The translations under genes were made by a program, and so were the position numbers. The notes under the pieces are model-generated. The model was not told where the DNA came from and made no database searches. It worked only from the letters and a program-made list of their open reading frames with translations. A DNA stretch of 13,225 nt from a virus. Of this stretch, positions 1,950 through 10,925 are shown one piece after another. Within the stretch, counting starts at the first letter, position 1. Every line of letters begins with the position of its first letter. The stretch lies in the UHGV virus genome UHGV-0112548, one strand, 5' to 3'.

Positions 1950-2891
1950 TCACCCCCTGAATCCTGCCGGGATCTGGCTGTAGTCCACGTTGTCGTAACT
2001 GGATTTGAAGTACGGGTCTTCGCGTTTTTCGATGTACGTGCTGACGGACGGCGATAAGCGCAGGGAAAGCTCATCCCATTTTTCCCGCAGCTTCGACGGG
2101 CTGAGCACGTTACGGCACCAGAACGGATCGCGGCTGACGCGGCTGTACATCTCGCAGATTTGTTTGTGAGTACGACCATCCTGCACACACATCAGGCGAA
2201 TTTCGTTTGCCCAGGCTGTCCAGTTCGGTTCTTTGGGACGAACCACCTCGCCGTCACATTCGGCGGCCTGCTCGTACAGGGCGATGATTTTTTTCCAGAG
2301 CCACTGTGCGCAGGTCAAATCATCCTGCGTTCCCCACTGGCGCTTTTTAGGGCTGAATACAACCGCATCAGGATGGCGAGTTAAAAAATCCTGTTCATCC
2401 GTCTGCGTGTCCGGTTGCGAAGCGTCCGGACGAGAAGTTTTTTTATCTGACGGATCATGTTTTGATTTTACTGACGGATCCCCGCCAGATTCTGACGGGT
2501 GAAAACCCGCTTTTTTGCCAGATTTCGACGCATCAAATTTTGACGGGTCAGATTTTGATGCGTCAGATTTTGACGGGTCAGAATCTGACAGTTGAGAAAA
2601 TGCCGCTGCCTGAAGCTTCGCAACGTTAAGCTGATAAACATTCGACGCATTGCGGTTACCCTGGCGACGCGCCTTACGCGTTAACCAGCCTTCTGCTTCC
2701 AGCCGTGCGATAGCCGTTCTGACGGTACTCATCCCCGCGCCAATCTGGCGGGCAATGGTTTCAATTGATGGCCAGCACACACCTTCGTCATTACTGAAAT
2801 CAGCCAGGCGGGCCATAATTGCCACGCTGGATAATTTCATGCCTGATGCAGCGCAACCATCCCATACATAGCCGGTTAATTTAGTGCTCAT
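1950..2891 (-). CDS. phage replication initiator (HTH N-domain, low-complexity linker encoded by iterons, conserved C-domain)
   Basis: 313 aa; N-terminus has a helix-turn-helix-like segment (SIETIARQIGAGMSTVRTAIARLEAEGWL); the SDxSKSD linker is encoded by the tandem repeats at 2445..2591; GAGG SD before the ATG at 2891. Arrangement mirrors lambda O with ori inside the gene. Confidence 0.6.
   Translation of the reverse strand: MSTKLTGYVWDGCAASGMKLSSVAIMARLADFSNDEGVCWPSIETIARQIGAGMSTVRTAIARLEAEGWLTRKARRQGNRNASNVYQLNVAKLQAAAFSQLSDSDPSKSDASKSDPSKFDASKSGKKAGFHPSESGGDPSVKSKHDPSDKKTSRPDASQPDTQTDEQDFLTRHPDAVVFSPKKRQWGTQDDLTCAQWLWKKIIALYEQAAECDGEVVRPKEPNWTAWANEIRLMCVQDGRTHKQICEMYSRVSRDPFWCRNVLSPSKLREKWDELSLRLSPSVSTYIEKREDPYFKSSYDNVDYSQIPAGFRG
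2445..2591. repeat. iteron array (about 8 copies of a ~15-bp GATTYTGACGGRTCA-like unit) with adjacent AT-rich patch; putative origin of replication
   Basis: Read directly: units at 2445-2459, 2470-2484, 2487-2501, then four phased tandem 15-mers at 2521-2535, 2536-2550, 2551-2565, 2566-2580 and a partial unit 2581-2591. AT-rich gaagtttttttatctga at about 2433-2450. Confidence 0.6.
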
Positions 2892-2900
2892 GACCGACCT

Positions 2901-3239
2901 CTATTTCCCTGAATTTACGACGAAACTGTTCGAGCGGGCTGAAGCACTCATGCTCATAGCCTTCGCGGAGGTAGATAACCCGTTGTGTTTCCGGCTCCCA
3001 ACGAATGACTCTGACGGGCACTCCGTAGTGATCTTTGAACCAGCGGTTAACTTGTCGCAAAGGACTGTCTCCTTCTGCCGGTTGAAATCACCCACAGCCC
3101 ACTCTGCAAAGCTGTGGGTTACAATTTCCCTGTCACCTGGTACATTCACTGCATAGCAATATTCCACCTTCGCTTTTCCACCCGGTACAGGAAGCGCAAT
3201 CAGTTGCGAGCAACGGTAGTGTGTTGTTAAACTGTTCAT
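2901..3239 (-). CDS. hypothetical protein; apparent frameshift near 3060-3087 (C-terminal part continues in another frame to 2881)
   Basis: ATG at 3239 overlaps the upstream stop (ATGA). The first ~55 aa look protein-like, the frame then turns Ser-rich, while the -1 frame reads ..[42 protein letters not shown].. and stops at 2881, overlapping the initiator start. Confidence 0.4.
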
Positions 3240-3820
3240 GCGTTAGTTTCTCCACAACCAGAAGCAATCGACGCCACGACGCCCGGAGCTGCACACTCGC
3301 GGGCGTTACTCTTTTCCGGCGCACAAAAAACACGAAATAACAGTGTTAAATGCTCCTGCCACTTCGCCATTACTTGGTAGCTGTTCTCTTCGATTTGCTC
3401 ACGCTCAGCCTGGTCAATAACTCCATCAGCAGTTGCCTTGCGTAAGTACTGGGAATGCTTGCCAATCCATTCTATTGACTCCATCAGCCGCTGATTAATG
3501 TCACCATTGTCAATGTCATCAATGACCACCAGCGGCACAAACACCCCATTACTACGACGGGCTATTGCATCTGTTACATGCCTGGTACCACTGGCATCCT
3601 GTAAAACCATGGCCCACTCAAGTGGAAAAATTTGATCCCCACCGCTACGCAGTCTGTTATGCAATTGATCTTTTGCTGGGGTGATATCATCAGATTTATA
3701 CAAACCAAGAATTTCTGCTGCTTCCTCATAGCCATGAGGTAAATCAGCAATCGTTCTTCGTATTGCTGCCACCAGCCATGCTGGTTGTTTATCAACTTTC
3801 CATTCAGGTTCTTTACCCAC
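3236..3820 (-). CDS. CII-like / YdaT-like early regulatory protein
   Basis: 194-aa ORF with GTG start at 3820 and GAGGAA SD 8 nt upstream; sits directly downstream of the Cro-like gene, where lambdoid phages carry cII. Family assignment is from position and recollection only. Confidence 0.45.
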
Positions 3821-3847: not shown

Positions 3848-4045
3848 TTATGCCGCAGCACTGTTAGTCTTTTGATATAAAGACACGTCAACTTTCAGTT
3901 TCCCGTTAGTAATTTTTTCTAACTGGTACGCTCGGCCTTCAGGAATAATCTCAGGCCACTCTGAAACAGACGGATGCTTAATACCTAGGGCTTCGGCAGT
4001 TTTACAAACTCCGCCGAAATAATTAATCACGTCGGATTTCCGCAT
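3848..4045 (-). CDS. cro: Cro-like repressor (YdaS-type HTH)
   Basis: 65 aa, divergent from the CI gene; NYFGG..KTAEALGI..SVSEWPE..IP..RAYQLE..T.GKLK matches the small Cro/YdaS-type HTH pattern; GGGAG SD upstream of the ATG at 4045. Confidence 0.7.
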   Translation of the reverse strand: MRKSDVINYFGGVCKTAEALGIKHPSVSEWPEIIPEGRAYQLEKITNGKLKVDVSLYQKTNSAAA

Positions 4046-4140
4046 TTCTGTCTCCCGTTAAATTACGTTAAGCAGAAATGTAGGATATCCAACATACCAA
4101 TGTCAAGAATCCTACATGGGCATGTGGTAGGATTGCCTAC
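4046..4140. promoter_or_regulatory. divergent PR / PRM-like promoter-operator region
   Basis: On the minus strand: TTGACA (plus 4101-4106), 18-bp spacer, TACATT (plus 4077-4082) with the 18-bp operator ATGTAGGATATCCAACAT (4078-4095) over the spacer and -10. A second symmetric element AATCCTAC-N11-GTAGGATT (4108-4134) overlaps a TAGGAT -10-like hexamer 7 nt before the cI ATG, implying a leaderless cI mRNA as at lambda PRM. Confidence 0.55.
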
Positions 4141-4794
4141 ATGATGAACATGAGTGATCGTATTCGCCAAAGGCGAAAAGAACTGAACCTGACACAACAA
4201 GCACTGGCTGATTTGACTGGTGTGAACCGTGTCACGGTTACTGGATGGGAAAAGGACGACTACCAACCAAATGGAGCCAACCTTCAAGCCCTAGCCAACG
4301 CACTTAAATGCGATCCTCTGTGGCTTGTTAGCGGAAAAGGCTCGCCTGAACCAAAGATAAATCTAAAACCTGAAATATTCGCAGTTAAAAAAGTCCCCCT
4401 CATCTCGTGGGTTCAGGCGGGTTCATGGACAATGACGGAGCCTGGTGTCAGGAAAGAAGATGCTGAAGAGTGGGTTTATACTACCGCCCTTGTATCAGAA
4501 ATGGCATTTGCACTACGGGTCCGTGGTGATTCAATGACCAATCCCCTCGGCTCACCATCGATACCAGAAGGTTCTATCGTTATCGTAGAGCCAGATATTA
4601 TTGATACAGAGTGTATTAACGGAAAAATCGTTGTTGCCCATATCAATGGTGGGCAAGAAGCGACACTCAAAAAATTTGTTGAGGACTGGCCGAACAGGTA
4701 TCTCGTCCCACTAAATCCTAACTATAAAACTATTGAATGCGGTGAGAACTGCAGAATAGTTGGTCTTGTCAAACAAGTAATAATGGATTTTTGA
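4141..4794 (+). CDS. cI: CI-type prophage repressor (HTH_XRE N-domain + S24 LexA-like autopeptidase C-domain)
   Basis: 217 aa; N-terminal HTH (LNLTQQALADLTGVNRVTVTGWE), C-terminal serine motif VRGDSM and downstream lysine (ATLKKF); divergent from cro across an operator region; no SD upstream. Confidence 0.85.
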   Translation: MMNMSDRIRQRRKELNLTQQALADLTGVNRVTVTGWEKDDYQPNGANLQALANALKCDPLWLVSGKGSPEPKINLKPEIFAVKKVPLISWVQAGSWTMTEPGVRKEDAEEWVYTTALVSEMAFALRVRGDSMTNPLGSPSIPEGSIVIVEPDIIDTECINGKIVVAHINGGQEATLKKFVEDWPNRYLVPLNPNYKTIECGENCRIVGLVKQVIMDF

Positions 4795-4910: not shown

Positions 4911-4992
4911 TGTTTTTAGAGTAGCCGCCGGTGGCATATGAATAACCGGATGATTCGCTGACAGAAAACTTAGGTTGGGGGTAGAGGTTTAC

Positions 4993-5358
4993 ATGAATCA
5001 TTTATTCACATGCTCATTTTGCGGAGCAACCGAACTGGGAGCGATAAAGATCGTCGCAAAAGGTGGTAAGGACGAACCTGCCATCTGTTCGGAATGCGTA
5101 GTCACATGTGTAGAAAAAATGATCCTGACTAAAAAATCAGAGGCTGAAAAACCAACCTCTGATAACGAAATAATATCAGTCGATAAAAAACTATTTAAAG
5201 AGCTTCTTCAGCTTGTCCTCAACCTTCCTGATTTCGGAAGTAAGCTGGCTGCTGTTGACATTGATAGTAGCTCCACATCGACAAGTGAAACTTTTGTTCG
5301 ACTTGAGCCAAGCGATTTTCTTCTTCGTCTTAGTGCCGCACTTAGGGCATGCGGGTAA
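4993..5358 (+). CDS. small protein with ClpX-type C4 zinc finger (ClpX N-terminal zinc-binding-domain-like)
   Basis: First ORF downstream of the PL-like promoter; ATG at 4993 after a GGGGGTAGAGG SD (the track start at 4975 is an alternative). CSFCGATELGAIKIVAKGGKDEPAICSECVVTC parallels ClpX [30 protein letters not shown]; no AAA+ module follows. Confidence 0.55.
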   Translation: MNHLFTCSFCGATELGAIKIVAKGGKDEPAICSECVVTCVEKMILTKKSEAEKPTSDNEIISVDKKLFKELLQLVLNLPDFGSKLAAVDIDSSSTSTSETFVRLEPSDFLLRLSAALRACG

Positions 5359-5700: not shown

Positions 5701-6618
5701 ATGAACAATCCGTTTTTCAAAAATATGTTGGTGTATCGCATTAGTCGCGATTTCACCATCAACCAGGAAGAGCTGGAACAGCAGCTTGAACTATTTCGCT
5801 TCACTCCATGCGGTAGCCAGGATATGGCAAAAACCGGTTGGGTATCACCACTTGGTCAGCTGTCAGATCGCTTGCATCACACTGTCAATAATCAAGTGTT
5901 GTTGGTTATTCGCCGGGAAGAAAAAATACTGCCATCTCCTGTCATTGCTGAAGAACTGCGCAAGCGTGTGTCGCGTCTGGAATCCGATCAGGGGCGTCGC
6001 CTCAAAAAAACTGAGAAAGATTCGCTGCGTGATGAAGTGTTGCACTCCCTGCTTCCTCGGGCGTTCTCCAAAAACTCGACTGTTAGTTTGTGGATCAACG
6101 TCACCGACGGTCTGATCATGGTTGATGCAGCCAGCGCTAAACGTGCCGAAGACTCACTGGCCCTGCTTCGTAAAACTCTCGGTTCTCTCCCGGTGGTACC
6201 GCTGACTATGGAAACGCCGATCGAACTAACTATGACCGAATGGGTTCGTTCCGGTAGTGCGCCTGCTGGCTTTGGCCTGGGTGATGAAGCCGAACTGAAA
6301 GCTATTCTTGAAGATGGCGGTATTGGACGCTTTAAAAAACAGACTCTGGTCAGTGACGAAATTCATGTGCATCTGGAAGCTGGCAAAGTAGTTACAAAGC
6401 TGTCTATCGACTGGCAACAGCGCATTCAGTTCGTTCTTTGCGATGACGGCAGCATCAAACGCCTTAAGTTCTCTAATGAGATTACAGAACAAAACGACGA
6501 TATCGACCGTGAGGATGCGGCTCAGAGGTTCGACGCTGACTTTGTTCTGATGACCGGCGAGCTTATCTCTCTCATTAACGGATTAACAACCTCTCTCGGC
6601 GGCGAAGCCAAGCGATAA
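5701..6618 (+). CDS. rdgC: RdgC-family recombination-associated protein (prophage-borne paralogue)
   Basis: 305 aa; [62 protein letters not shown] and [14 protein letters not shown] track E. coli RdgC along its full length as I recall it. GAGGAA SD before the ATG. Confidence 0.85.
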
Positions 6619-9651: not shown

Positions 9652-10353
9652 ATGATCACTATTACCAAAGAGCGACTGCTGACAATCAAGCAGTGGCGCG
9701 AAACATACGGACCTGGTAGCAACGTTGTACTGCCAGCAGAAGAAGCGGAAGAACTGGCACGAATTGCTCTGGCATCGCTGGAAGCAGAGCCTATTGGTGA
9801 GGTTTCAGAGAAGCGACTCGGCCTTGTTATGGATGGAACGGTAGACCTTGGCGGGAAATCAACTTATCGCATCATTAAGGGAGAAAAAGCGATGAAGTTG
9901 TTGCCGCTGGGGACGAAGTTTTATGCCGCCCCTCCAGTGCCAGTAGTACCGGAAGAAAAACCAATGCCTAACCCTCTTAAAATGTACGCGGTTGATGCTG
10001 TTGCCGCTATTGCAGAGGTGAGAGGCTGGAACGCCTGTCGTGCCGCTATGCTTCAGGGTAAATCCGAACAACCACAAAACGCACAACAAAATATTCCGGA
10101 AAATATTCACGGTGGCAACTCTCCGGTAACTCCGGATGGTTGGATAAGCTGTAGTGATCGAATGCCGGAAAAGAATCAGAACGTGCTTATTTCAGTGAAT
10201 TTCGATAGCTCTCTGGTTGAACCGCTAATATGCTCCGCACGCTATACCGGAAGCACCTTTCGGCGCGGAGATGCAACGATTAAGCCGGGTAATGGTATTG
10301 AGCAAGCAACTCACTGGATGCCGCTACCGGAACCGCCGCAGGAGGTGAAGTAA
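9652..10353 (+). CDS. DUF551-like phage protein
   Basis: 233 aa; C-terminal DGWISCSDRMPE ... ATHWMPLPEPP resembles the conserved end of DUF551-family phage proteins (from memory). Confidence 0.55.
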   Translation: MITITKERLLTIKQWRETYGPGSNVVLPAEEAEELARIALASLEAEPIGEVSEKRLGLVMDGTVDLGGKSTYRIIKGEKAMKLLPLGTKFYAAPPVPVVPEEKPMPNPLKMYAVDAVAAIAEVRGWNACRAAMLQGKSEQPQNAQQNIPENIHGGNSPVTPDGWISCSDRMPEKNQNVLISVNFDSSLVEPLICSARYTGSTFRRGDATIKPGNGIEQATHWMPLPEPPQEVK

Positions 10354-10925
10354 TGAATAACTTAATGATCGACCTTGAGACGATGGGGAAAAATAAGGAT
10401 GCACCGATCGTTTCCATTGGCGCGGTGTTCTTCACTCCAGAAACCGGAGACATCGAACAAGAATTCTATACGGTTGTTAGCCTGGAAAGTGCTATGGAGC
10501 AAGGAGCTACACCTGACGGCGATACCATCCTGTGGTGGTTGAAACAGAGCTCTGAAGCACGAGCTGCAATCTGTATTGATGATACTTTGTCGATCAGCGA
10601 TGCACTCTCTGAACTGAGCCATTTCATTAATCAGCATGCAGACAATACAAAATATTTAAAAGTCTGGGGTAACGGGGCCACCTTCGACAACGTAATTTTA
10701 CGTGGAGCTTACGAGCGAGCAGGACAAATCTGCCCGTGGGCGTACTGGAATGACCACGATGTACGCACGATCATTACGCTTGGGCGTTCCATCGGATTCG
10801 ACCCAAAAATGGACATGCCTTTCGATGGCGAACGGCACAACGCCCTGGCTGATGCCCGTCATCAGGCAAAATATGTTTCCGCTATCTGGCAGAAACTAAT
10901 TCCTGCCACCAGCACAGAATTATGA
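10353..10925 (+). CDS. DEDD-type 3'-5' exonuclease
   Basis: 190 aa; Exo I motif MIDLETMG, mid-protein VWGNGATFDNVIL, C-terminal HNALADARHQAKY (H-x4-D), the DEDDh pattern. Start overlaps the upstream stop as TAATG. Confidence 0.7.
   Translation: MNNLMIDLETMGKNKDAPIVSIGAVFFTPETGDIEQEFYTVVSLESAMEQGATPDGDTILWWLKQSSEARAAICIDDTLSISDALSELSHFINQHADNTKYLKVWGNGATFDNVILRGAYERAGQICPWAYWNDHDVRTIITLGRSIGFDPKMDMPFDGERHNALADARHQAKYVSAIWQKLIPATSTEL

Follow-up and report, generated by a model that had tools for sequence, protein, structure and literature searches.

The whole 13,225-nucleotide stretch of the virus genome UHGV-0112548, hereafter called the window, contains a gene for a replication initiator (1950-2891, minus strand), the 313-residue open reading frame (ORF) of which starts with a winged-helix N-domain of the HTH_36 family, continues with a disordered linker and a C-domain resembling that of lambda O, and ends with a tail similar to that of DnaT. 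The linker-coding part of this gene (2433-2598) is very probably the vegetative replication origin of a temperate phage of the SfIV/SfII/e14 type. This reading, which was derived by sequence comparison, is based on a significant and phased cluster of repeats, located in the disordered linker that immediately follows the DNA-binding domain, and on a minimum of DNA stability that adjoins the array, both here and in 62 of the 76 complete homologues. The anatomy of the region, its conservation at the level of the DNA, its linkage to the N-domain and its parallel with the annotated origins of lambda and P22 are direct observations, from which we infer origin function, including binding, unwinding, helicase recruitment and the start of replication at this place. 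An origin inside the initiator gene is an expected arrangement of a known kind and not a new principle. Indeed, the lambda-like logic had already been proposed in an earlier note on this DNA, which was made from the sequence alone, and both the layout and the comparative evidence support it.

According to the proposed mechanism, derepression would lead to transcription from a pR-like promoter and thereby to synthesis of the initiator. The winged-helix N-domain would then bind to four phased TGA-N4-TCA units and to an additional isolated unit. The resulting nucleoprotein complex would destabilise the adjoining GATC-containing AT-rich patch, and the lambda-O-like C-domain together with the DnaT-like tail would bring in the host DnaB helicase machinery.

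Anatomy of the repeat array and the AT-rich patch

Four in-phase 15-bp iterons with the core TGA-N4-TCA-RAA are located at positions 2523-2582, where they code for SDPSK SDASK SDPSK FDASK; they were defined by Tandem Repeats Finder, a sequence logo and motif clustering. In the orientation of the gene, the units read TCTGACCCGTCAAAA (2568-2582), TCTGACGCATCAAAA (2553-2567), TCTGACCCGTCAAAA (2538-2552) and TTTGATGCGTCGAAA (2523-2537). Tandem Repeats Finder reports an array at 2519-2582 with a period of 15, 4.3 copies, 81% matches, no indels and a score of 86, and it also offers a reading with a period of 30 and 88% matches. The latter reflects an alternation of P and A units that occurs here and in phiNP and is absent from the other homologues; therefore, the period of 30 was not counted as a feature. 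The upstream edge of the array is formed by a partial degenerate unit (2583-2598) with a TCAGAT half-site, which corresponds to TGACAGTTGAGAA on the plus strand. On the other side, a spacer with an A6 run (2507-2522; TCTGGCAAAAAAGCGG in gene orientation), which was aligned across homologues, separates the array from the isolated iteron-like unit GTTTTCACCCGTCAGAATCTGG (2485-2506). The A/T tract of this unit lies on the side opposite to that of the tandem units, with which it forms the inverted-repeat pairs I1 and I2. Two GATCCGTCAG motifs are located 24 nucleotides apart at 2471-2480 and 2447-2456. Altogether, the repeated sites span gene nucleotides 304-445, after the winged-helix domain formed by residues 1-101.

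The cluster stands out from the remainder of the window. With at most one mismatch, the motif TGANNNNTCARAA occurs 18 times in the 13.2 kb, as compared with 8.5 +/- 2.8 times in shuffled sequences, none of 200 of which reached 18 matches. Eleven of the 18 matches fall in 2445-2598 and a second cluster was not found anywhere else in the window. The earlier note had described four phased 15-bp units and further copies, each containing the inverted repeat TGAC-GG-GTCA. The units and the further copies are indeed present, whereas the exact inverted repeat occurs in just two of the four tandem units. Moreover, the core that is common to the units turned out to be TGA-N4-TCA and not TGACGGGTCA, as had been suggested.

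Other candidate signals in this segment were rejected. A terminator-like hairpin antisense to the gene (2496-2509 on the plus strand, CGGGTGAAAACCCG followed by CTTTTTTGCC), which lies between the array and the isolated unit, is not kept in the homologues and is thus probably due to chance. Matches to microRNA-precursor models of Rfam at 2516-2590 (mir-5880, 30.7 bits as compared with a gathering score of 97) are below the threshold and spurious; they arise because the repeats are palindromic.

In gene orientation, the iterons precede an AT-rich patch (2433-2480), which contains the two GATCCGTCAG motifs, an A7 run (2438-2444) and GATC and which is a candidate DNA-unwinding element. Both this order and the AT-rich stretch at 2433-2450 had been noticed before and were confirmed by the present analysis. 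The stretch has an A+T content of 78% and forms part of the 40-mer with the lowest stability in the gene (2433-2472), for which a free energy (dG) of -46.2 was calculated as compared with a window mean of -54.7. With a distance of about two standard deviations from this mean, the 40-mer belongs to the least stable 2% of the window.

For the comparative analyses, eight phage homologues with N-domain identities of 58-88% and 80 chromosomal loci (L015-L094), one per species and from across the Enterobacterales, were used. In the 62 homologues mentioned above, the least stable 40-mer starts at gene nucleotides 400-499, just 3' of the iterons, and the stability minimum in the homologues is about three standard deviations away from the gene mean. 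The patch (gene nucleotides 391-520, L015-L094) has a GATC density of 19.7 per kb, eight times that of the remaining gene (2.5 per kb). Every gene carries at least one GATC in the patch segment and most of them carry two or three. The patch is reminiscent of the 13-mers of oriC, which bear GATC, and of the GATC heptamers of P1 oriR, and it may be speculated that a GATC-laden unwinding element puts firing of the origin under the control of Dam methylation. As regards the gene content of the loci, a Dam-type methylase gene is located one or two genes downstream of the initiator gene in many cases and two genes downstream in the window, and it is absent from SfIV. Many of these phages carry a dam gene of their own beside the initiator gene.

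The comparison with lambdoid origins that the earlier note had recommended revealed the same succession of N-domain, iterons, AT patch and C-domain as in the annotated origins of lambda and P22. As in lambda, the putative origin is found inside the gene for the initiator, where the DNA-binding N-domain gives way to the C-domain, and about four dyad-symmetric tandem sites have an A/T-rich segment downstream of them with respect to the gene. The gene also belongs to the pR operon, and the protein shares a homologous C-terminal half with lambda O. The record of lambda places the four iterons at gene nucleotides 349-433, which directly follow the Phage_rep_O domain (residues 22-115) and precede an A-rich run. 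However, the two systems differ in several respects. The N-domain is of the Phage_rep_O type in lambda and of the HTH_36 type here, and the 18-19-bp units of the ATCCCTCAAAACGAGGGA type in lambda contrast with 15-bp units having the TGA-N4-TCA core. Moreover, the isolated unit and the GATC motifs in the AT patch are additional features of the present system, a P gene is lacking and the protein ends with a DnaT-like tail instead of ...NTDWIYGVDL. In P22, the rep_origin is annotated at the same relative position (gene nucleotides 353-497) and also has its own repeats. However, these repeats are unrelated, gp18 is a Phage_rep_O protein and gene 18 is followed by a DnaB-type helicase gene of P22 itself (gene 12). 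Iterons of their own inside each coding region have been described for lambda O, P22 gp18 and phage L gp18, and the six 11-bp repeats in gene 18 of phage L have been proposed to constitute an origin on the basis of the same comparative reasoning (PMC8022706).

The conserved layout also bears on the possibility that the sites bind the initiator mainly for regulatory purposes such as roadblock autorepression, copy-number control or handcuffing, or the exclusion of related phages, and that the true origin is located elsewhere in the phage. The sites are indeed situated inside the initiator's own transcription unit, the iterons of plasmids also act in control and the start site of DNA synthesis rests on inference here. 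Furthermore, cloned lambda ori iterons have been reported to cause replication-directed inhibition of homologous phages (PMC3349717). However, the array, the isolated unit and the least stable, GATC-rich segment are conserved together as a full origin grammar, the motif clusters nowhere else in the 13-kb window and the position equals that of the annotated origins of lambda and P22. A mainly regulatory role of the sites is therefore improbable.

Conservation of the DNA and not of the linker peptide

The earlier note had named the absence or lack of conservation of the repeats in homologous initiator genes as evidence that would speak against an origin. The repeats are conserved: at least two copies of TGA-N4-TCA are present in the linker segment of 77 of the 80 loci and at least three copies in 66 of them, and the spacing is nearly always 15 nucleotides. 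In these species-level homologues, the motif reaches a density of 13.06 per kb in the 291 nucleotides after the N-domain, as compared with 0.44 per kb in the other parts of the gene and 0.32 per kb in the flanks, which means that it is 30-40 times denser in the linker segment than elsewhere. A logo of 40 units revealed that the positions T3, G4, A5, T10, C11, A12, R13, A14 and A15 are conserved and that the positions 1-2 and 6-9 are variable. The residue encoded by the first codon of the unit varies (S, F, I, R, P or Y) and the third base of this codon stays T. The middle codon is free, with CCG, GCA, ACA, GGG, CCT and others being used, and third positions are conserved even where a non-synonymous change occurs in the codon. 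Judged from the aligned units, this pattern of conserved third bases combined with a free middle codon is not what selection on a peptide would produce.

The codon usage is in line with this view. Among the 109 serine codons of the linker, 63 are TCA (58%), 37 are TCT and none is AGC, whereas the 165 serine codons elsewhere in the same genes include 26 TCA and 41 AGC codons. In the iteron zone, all 56 Asp-Pro pairs use GAC-CC and thereby create TGAC, whereas 149 of the 222 pairs in the patch use GAT-CC and thereby create GATC. In the adjacent N-domain, just 35-58% of the positions with an identical residue also have the same codon. Thus, the synonymous sites have widely diverged, yet the cores of the iterons remained unchanged. 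The isolated unit is present with at most four substitutions in 68 of the 80 homologues. Because of a 1-nucleotide indel upstream, this unit is translated in a different reading frame in phiP27 (L007, nucleotides 446-466), in Stx2_KH16-043 (L006, nucleotides 461-481) and in a Citrobacter prophage (L084, nucleotides 439-460). The encoded peptide is VLTLQNL or VFTRQNL and not GFHPSES, and the DNA is kept, with 20 of the 22 positions being unchanged in the Citrobacter prophage. Taken together, the motif density, the logo, the codon bias and the frame-shifted unit make a purely peptide-level explanation very unlikely, and the alignments point to selection acting on the DNA rather than on the linker peptide.

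The same data argue against the view that the repeats are a by-product of a slippage-prone low-complexity linker of the type (S/F)-(D/E)-x-S-K, which would be selected for flexibility or charge and would have no role in cis. It is true that the repeats code for a disordered linker, that such peptide repeats arise easily and that closely related alleles of the segment 2485-2591 (P0006, P0009, P0010, P0015, P0018, P0019 and P0048) differ by steps of five residues in their number of iterons, which ranges from 2 to at least 8. However, the third codon positions are more conserved than the two positions before them, the choice of serine codons is extreme (TCA 58%, AGC 0%) and the choice of Asp codons depends on the position. 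Furthermore, one unit is kept as DNA in three homologues though it is translated in another frame, synonymous sites have become largely random in the adjoining N-domain and unrelated N-domains come with unrelated repeats at the same place. These findings leave very little probability for a by-product of the linker peptide. Rare alleles encoding 287, 282 and 274 residues delete the entire tandem array; by analogy, these alleles may belong to origin-defective prophages, comparable to the in-frame ori deletions of lambda.

Inheritance of the repeats together with the N-domain

The block consisting of the N-domain, the iterons and the AT patch is found fused to C-domains of at least three unrelated types, namely the lambda-O-like type, Phg_2220_C and the phiP27 type. 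The conserved junction of the N- and C-modules (2400-2437, minus strand, or 2400-2446 in a wider delimitation), which codes for ..TSRPDASQPDTQT.., directly follows the origin-like segment and has the consensus ..PS(C/R)P(D/V)A(S/P)QPD.. across the loci, with the variant ..TS(R/C)P(D/V)A(S/P)QPD... In mEp460_4F5, the C-half of the gene is 97% identical to that of the window gene, the homology extends up to position 2446 and the N-domain is different. At the same place, this gene (L013) contains 5.4 copies of its own 23-24-bp repeat (gene nucleotides 315-491) and, just after them, an array of A-rich 12-mers. HTH_36 initiators with 43-46% identity likewise possess their own 21-24-bp dyad repeats at gene nucleotides 290-370. 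The positions of the own repeats are 292-355 in the O gene of phage 24B (L011), 320-368 in the gene of Klebsiella ST13-OXA48phi12.5 (L012) and 286-420 in orf39 of SfV (L014). The repeat sequence tracks the N-domain, i.e. the same N-domain is associated with the same repeats and a different N-domain with different repeats. This co-inheritance, as it appears from the compared loci, is the classical signature of lambdoid origin specificity.

It is least probable of all that the sites serve another DNA transaction, be it as targets of other phage or host proteins such as the PerC-like and LexA-domain regulators encoded just downstream, as binding sites for SeqA at the GATC sites clustering in the patch or as a hotspot for module-exchange recombination at the mosaic junction immediately downstream (2400-2446), because the repeats co-vary with the initiator N-domain rather than with the genes downstream, which vary from locus to locus, the junction lies outside the array and the motif is unlike the LexA box.

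Domain structure of the initiator

An AlphaFold2 model of the initiator was built from 24 homologues. In this model, the N-domain (residues 1-101; 2589-2891, minus strand), which is the presumed reader of the iterons, adopts a winged-helix fold with a predicted local distance difference test (pLDDT) score of about 80. The residues 102-158 between the two folded domains are disordered (pLDDT 31-43), and the C-domain (residues 160-283; 2043-2414, minus strand) is helical (pLDDT 80-90) and followed by a disordered tail. The repeats and the AT patch occupy codons 102-153, which coincides exactly with the disordered segment. In agreement with the previous proposal that the iterons code for an interdomain linker, the peptide encoded by the repeats (SDPSKSDASKSDPSKFDASKS) is found in the segment between both folded domains having pLDDT values below 50.

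The N-domain was assigned to the Pfam family HTH_36 (PF13730) with 42.9 bits (gathering cut-off 25, E 4.2e-11). The Pfam scan gave no match of the initiator N-domain to PF04492 (Phage_rep_O), whereas lambda O and P22 gp18 do match this family, and hhalign yielded a probability of 3.8% for a relationship between the initiator N-domain and P22 gp18. The C-terminal half of the protein is a different matter. The impression that the protein does not obviously resemble lambda O had to be revised because a direct BLASTP comparison revealed 31% identity over 216 residues (E 4e-26), and the alignment with lambda O contains the common blocks WGTxxDLTxAxW...WANxIRLMxxxDGRxH...FWxxNVLSPxKLRxKW. The C-terminal half of lambda O is the half that contacts P. 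No Pfam model matches the C-domain, even in a permissive scan, and the kinship with lambda O surfaced only by direct BLASTP. In the PDB, a profile of the whole protein, its C-terminal 156 residues and a profile of the C-domain retrieved weak winged-helix matches or none. Lambda O has been drawn with a Phg_2220_C domain (PMC5509034); however, Pfam finds no such match in lambda O and assigns Phg_2220_C to the phiNP-type C-domain. Since the N-domain belongs to HTH_36 and those of lambda O and P22 gp18 belong to Phage_rep_O, the initiator is, as judged from these relationships, an O-type protein with a swapped DNA-recognition module. The swapped module also fits the different sequence of the iterons.

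Observations that weigh against an origin

Several observations do not favour an origin at 2433-2598. First, the window contains six matches to the DnaA box with one mismatch, which is not above chance, and none of them was found inside or next to the gene. Second, the AT patch is short, has an A+T content of about 65-72% and is surpassed in instability by several intergenic stretches of the window. Because these intergenic stretches are more AT-rich, the patch is modest in absolute terms. Third, alleles with 2 to more than 8 units or without tandem units exist and thus the exact number of units is not fixed. Fourth, the 15-bp spacing does not correspond to whole helical turns and differs from the spacing of about 20-24 bp in lambda. 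Moreover, slippage can homogenise tandem repeats, thereby inflating the apparent conservation within one array. Helicase recruitment would also need a route without a loader gene, as none was found in the window or in SfIV. Finally, the literature that was searched, covering the SfIV paper as well as SfV, SfII, phiP27-type phages and HTH_36 initiators, does not describe the origin, and no binding, footprint, ori-cloning or marker-frequency data were found in it.

Helicase recruitment and the DnaT-like tail

The earlier note had proposed to look for a helicase or helicase-loader gene elsewhere in the prophage. No P, DnaC-like, helicase or primase gene was found in the window or in the complete SfIV genome, which is that of a viable phage. 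That the initiator gene is the sole replication gene of this functional phage speaks in favour of the proposed origin. The last nine residues of the initiator, SQIPAGFRG (1953-1979, minus strand), match SQIPPGFRG of the E. coli DnaT protein at eight of nine positions, the C-termini being ...NVDYSQIPAGFRG in the initiator and ...SEPDSQIPPGFRG in DnaT. The relative P0103 matches the last 20 residues of DnaT at 14 positions. The DnaT-like tail is also the reason for annotations as 'primosomal protein I'. The similarity is confined to the last 9-20 residues: the initiator shows no similarity to the N-domain and the three-helix single-stranded DNA-binding domain of DnaT, and no DnaT chain was matched in profile and sequence searches of the PDB with the initiator.

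A tail of the GFR type is present in 45 of the 80 loci, none of which has a subsequent P-like or DnaC-like gene. For the other tails, such a gene follows in 12 of 31 cases (Fisher p = 4.5e-6), the count covering about 0.7-0.9 kb downstream per locus and the loci being phylogenetically related. One caveat comes from a relative in Vibrio, the tail of which bears a loose resemblance (..QLPERRG) although a DnaC-like gene is located next to it. In homologues that have the same C-domain but a lambda-O-like tail (..NTDWIYG..), a Phage_lambda_P gene directly follows the initiator gene, and the same is true for a Klebsiella phage with the tail ..HWNSPEGW... We tentatively suggest, with rather less than even confidence, that the origin is loader-less ('initiator-solo') and that the initiator recruits the host helicase machinery via a C-terminal peptide copied from the host DnaT protein (...SQIPxGFRG). 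Judged from its distribution, the DnaT-like tail may be the way in which a loader-less initiator taps the host machinery. If this is true, the tail would replace the lambda P or DnaC-like genes, and the tail of DnaT itself (residues 154-179) would be a docking handle for DnaB-DnaC, or for PriA/PriB. The residues 154-179 of DnaT have no assigned structure or partner and the recruitment of DnaB-DnaC by DnaT has been stated to be unknown (PMC4132743; PMC13377028).

Besides the initiators described above, a third class with a length of about 335-350 residues was observed, which is characterised by a C-terminal extension ending with ..W(K/Q)(E/Q)..Q(R/A)....AA (L005, L027, L033, L035, L050, L052, L056, L063, L066-L068 and L073-L082). 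A P-like or DnaC-like gene was not seen in about 0.8 kb downstream of the third-class genes, and neither their extension nor the downstream ORF of YeP1, which encodes 156 residues, gave a Pfam match.

The initiator gene and its surroundings

The initiator gene shares 99.2-99.3% DNA identity with the gene for gp41 of the Shigella phage SfIV and with genes of several E. coli phages, which are annotated as 'replication protein O' or 'primosomal protein', and it is 98.6% identical to the SfII gene. Moreover, the initiator matches phrog_391 ('replication initiation O-like') with an E value of 4e-135. The gene is surrounded by an early-right operon of lambdoid layout, including a gene for a cI-like repressor (4141-4794, plus strand), a P22-Cro-like gene (3848-4045, minus strand), a YmfL/cII-like gene (3236-3820) and a small gene of no assigned function (2901-3239). 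Downstream of the initiator gene follow, in this order, genes for a PerC-like protein, a Dam methylase (806-1492), a protein with a LexA DNA-binding domain and RusA. A consensus scan predicted a pR-like promoter (TTGACA-18-TACATT; 4077-4106, minus strand) between cI and cro, which would transcribe cro, the cII-like gene, the small ORF and the initiator gene and would thus read through the putative origin. On the side of the left operon, the window contains genes for a small protein that weakly matches a ClpX-type zinc finger (4975-5358), a protein of the RdgC family (5701-6618, E 8e-116) and a protein with an Rv2179c-like 3'-5' exoribonuclease domain (10353-10925).

Relationship to other systems and biological significance

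Iteron plasmids possess a winged-helix Rep protein and repeats that adjoin an AT-rich unwinding element. Their iterons usually have a length of 17-22 bp, are spaced by about two helical turns and lie outside the rep gene, often together with DnaA boxes. In oriC and P1 oriR, GATC sites are concentrated in the AT-rich element. The system described here shares with these origins the winged-helix initiator, the direct repeats beside an AT-rich element and the concentration of GATC in the patch. However, it differs in having 15-bp units that are located inside the gene, and a DnaA box was not found within the gene. With DnaT, the initiator has the tail alone in common.

The 'O' proteins of non-lambdoid Stx phages (Eru5, 6, 8, 11 and 13; O of 24B) and the SfV protein have an N-domain of the same HTH_36 family. 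Their genes contain a tandem array at the same place, whereas the sequences and periods of the repeats differ (21-24 bp), and several of them have a gene for a helicase, a primase or a P-like protein downstream. According to a survey of the non-lambdoid Stx phages, nothing is known about their replication proteins (PMC8951638).

The present analysis provides a candidate origin of about 170 bp and an iteron consensus (TGA-N4-TCA with a 15-bp phase) for a group of widespread temperate phages and prophages of enterobacteria. Among its members are SfII and SfIV, two serotype-converting phages of Shigella, as well as e14-like elements, and relatives occur in dozens of genera. The same rule is followed by the many HTH_36 'O' proteins of the non-lambdoid Stx phages, each of which has its own repeats. 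The candidate origin could be useful for the annotation of prophages, for ori-based incompatibility and exclusion tests and for building vectors. The finding that the DnaT tail and phage loader genes are mutually exclusive could matter even more, as it may offer a handle on the DnaT-type recruitment of DnaB-DnaC.

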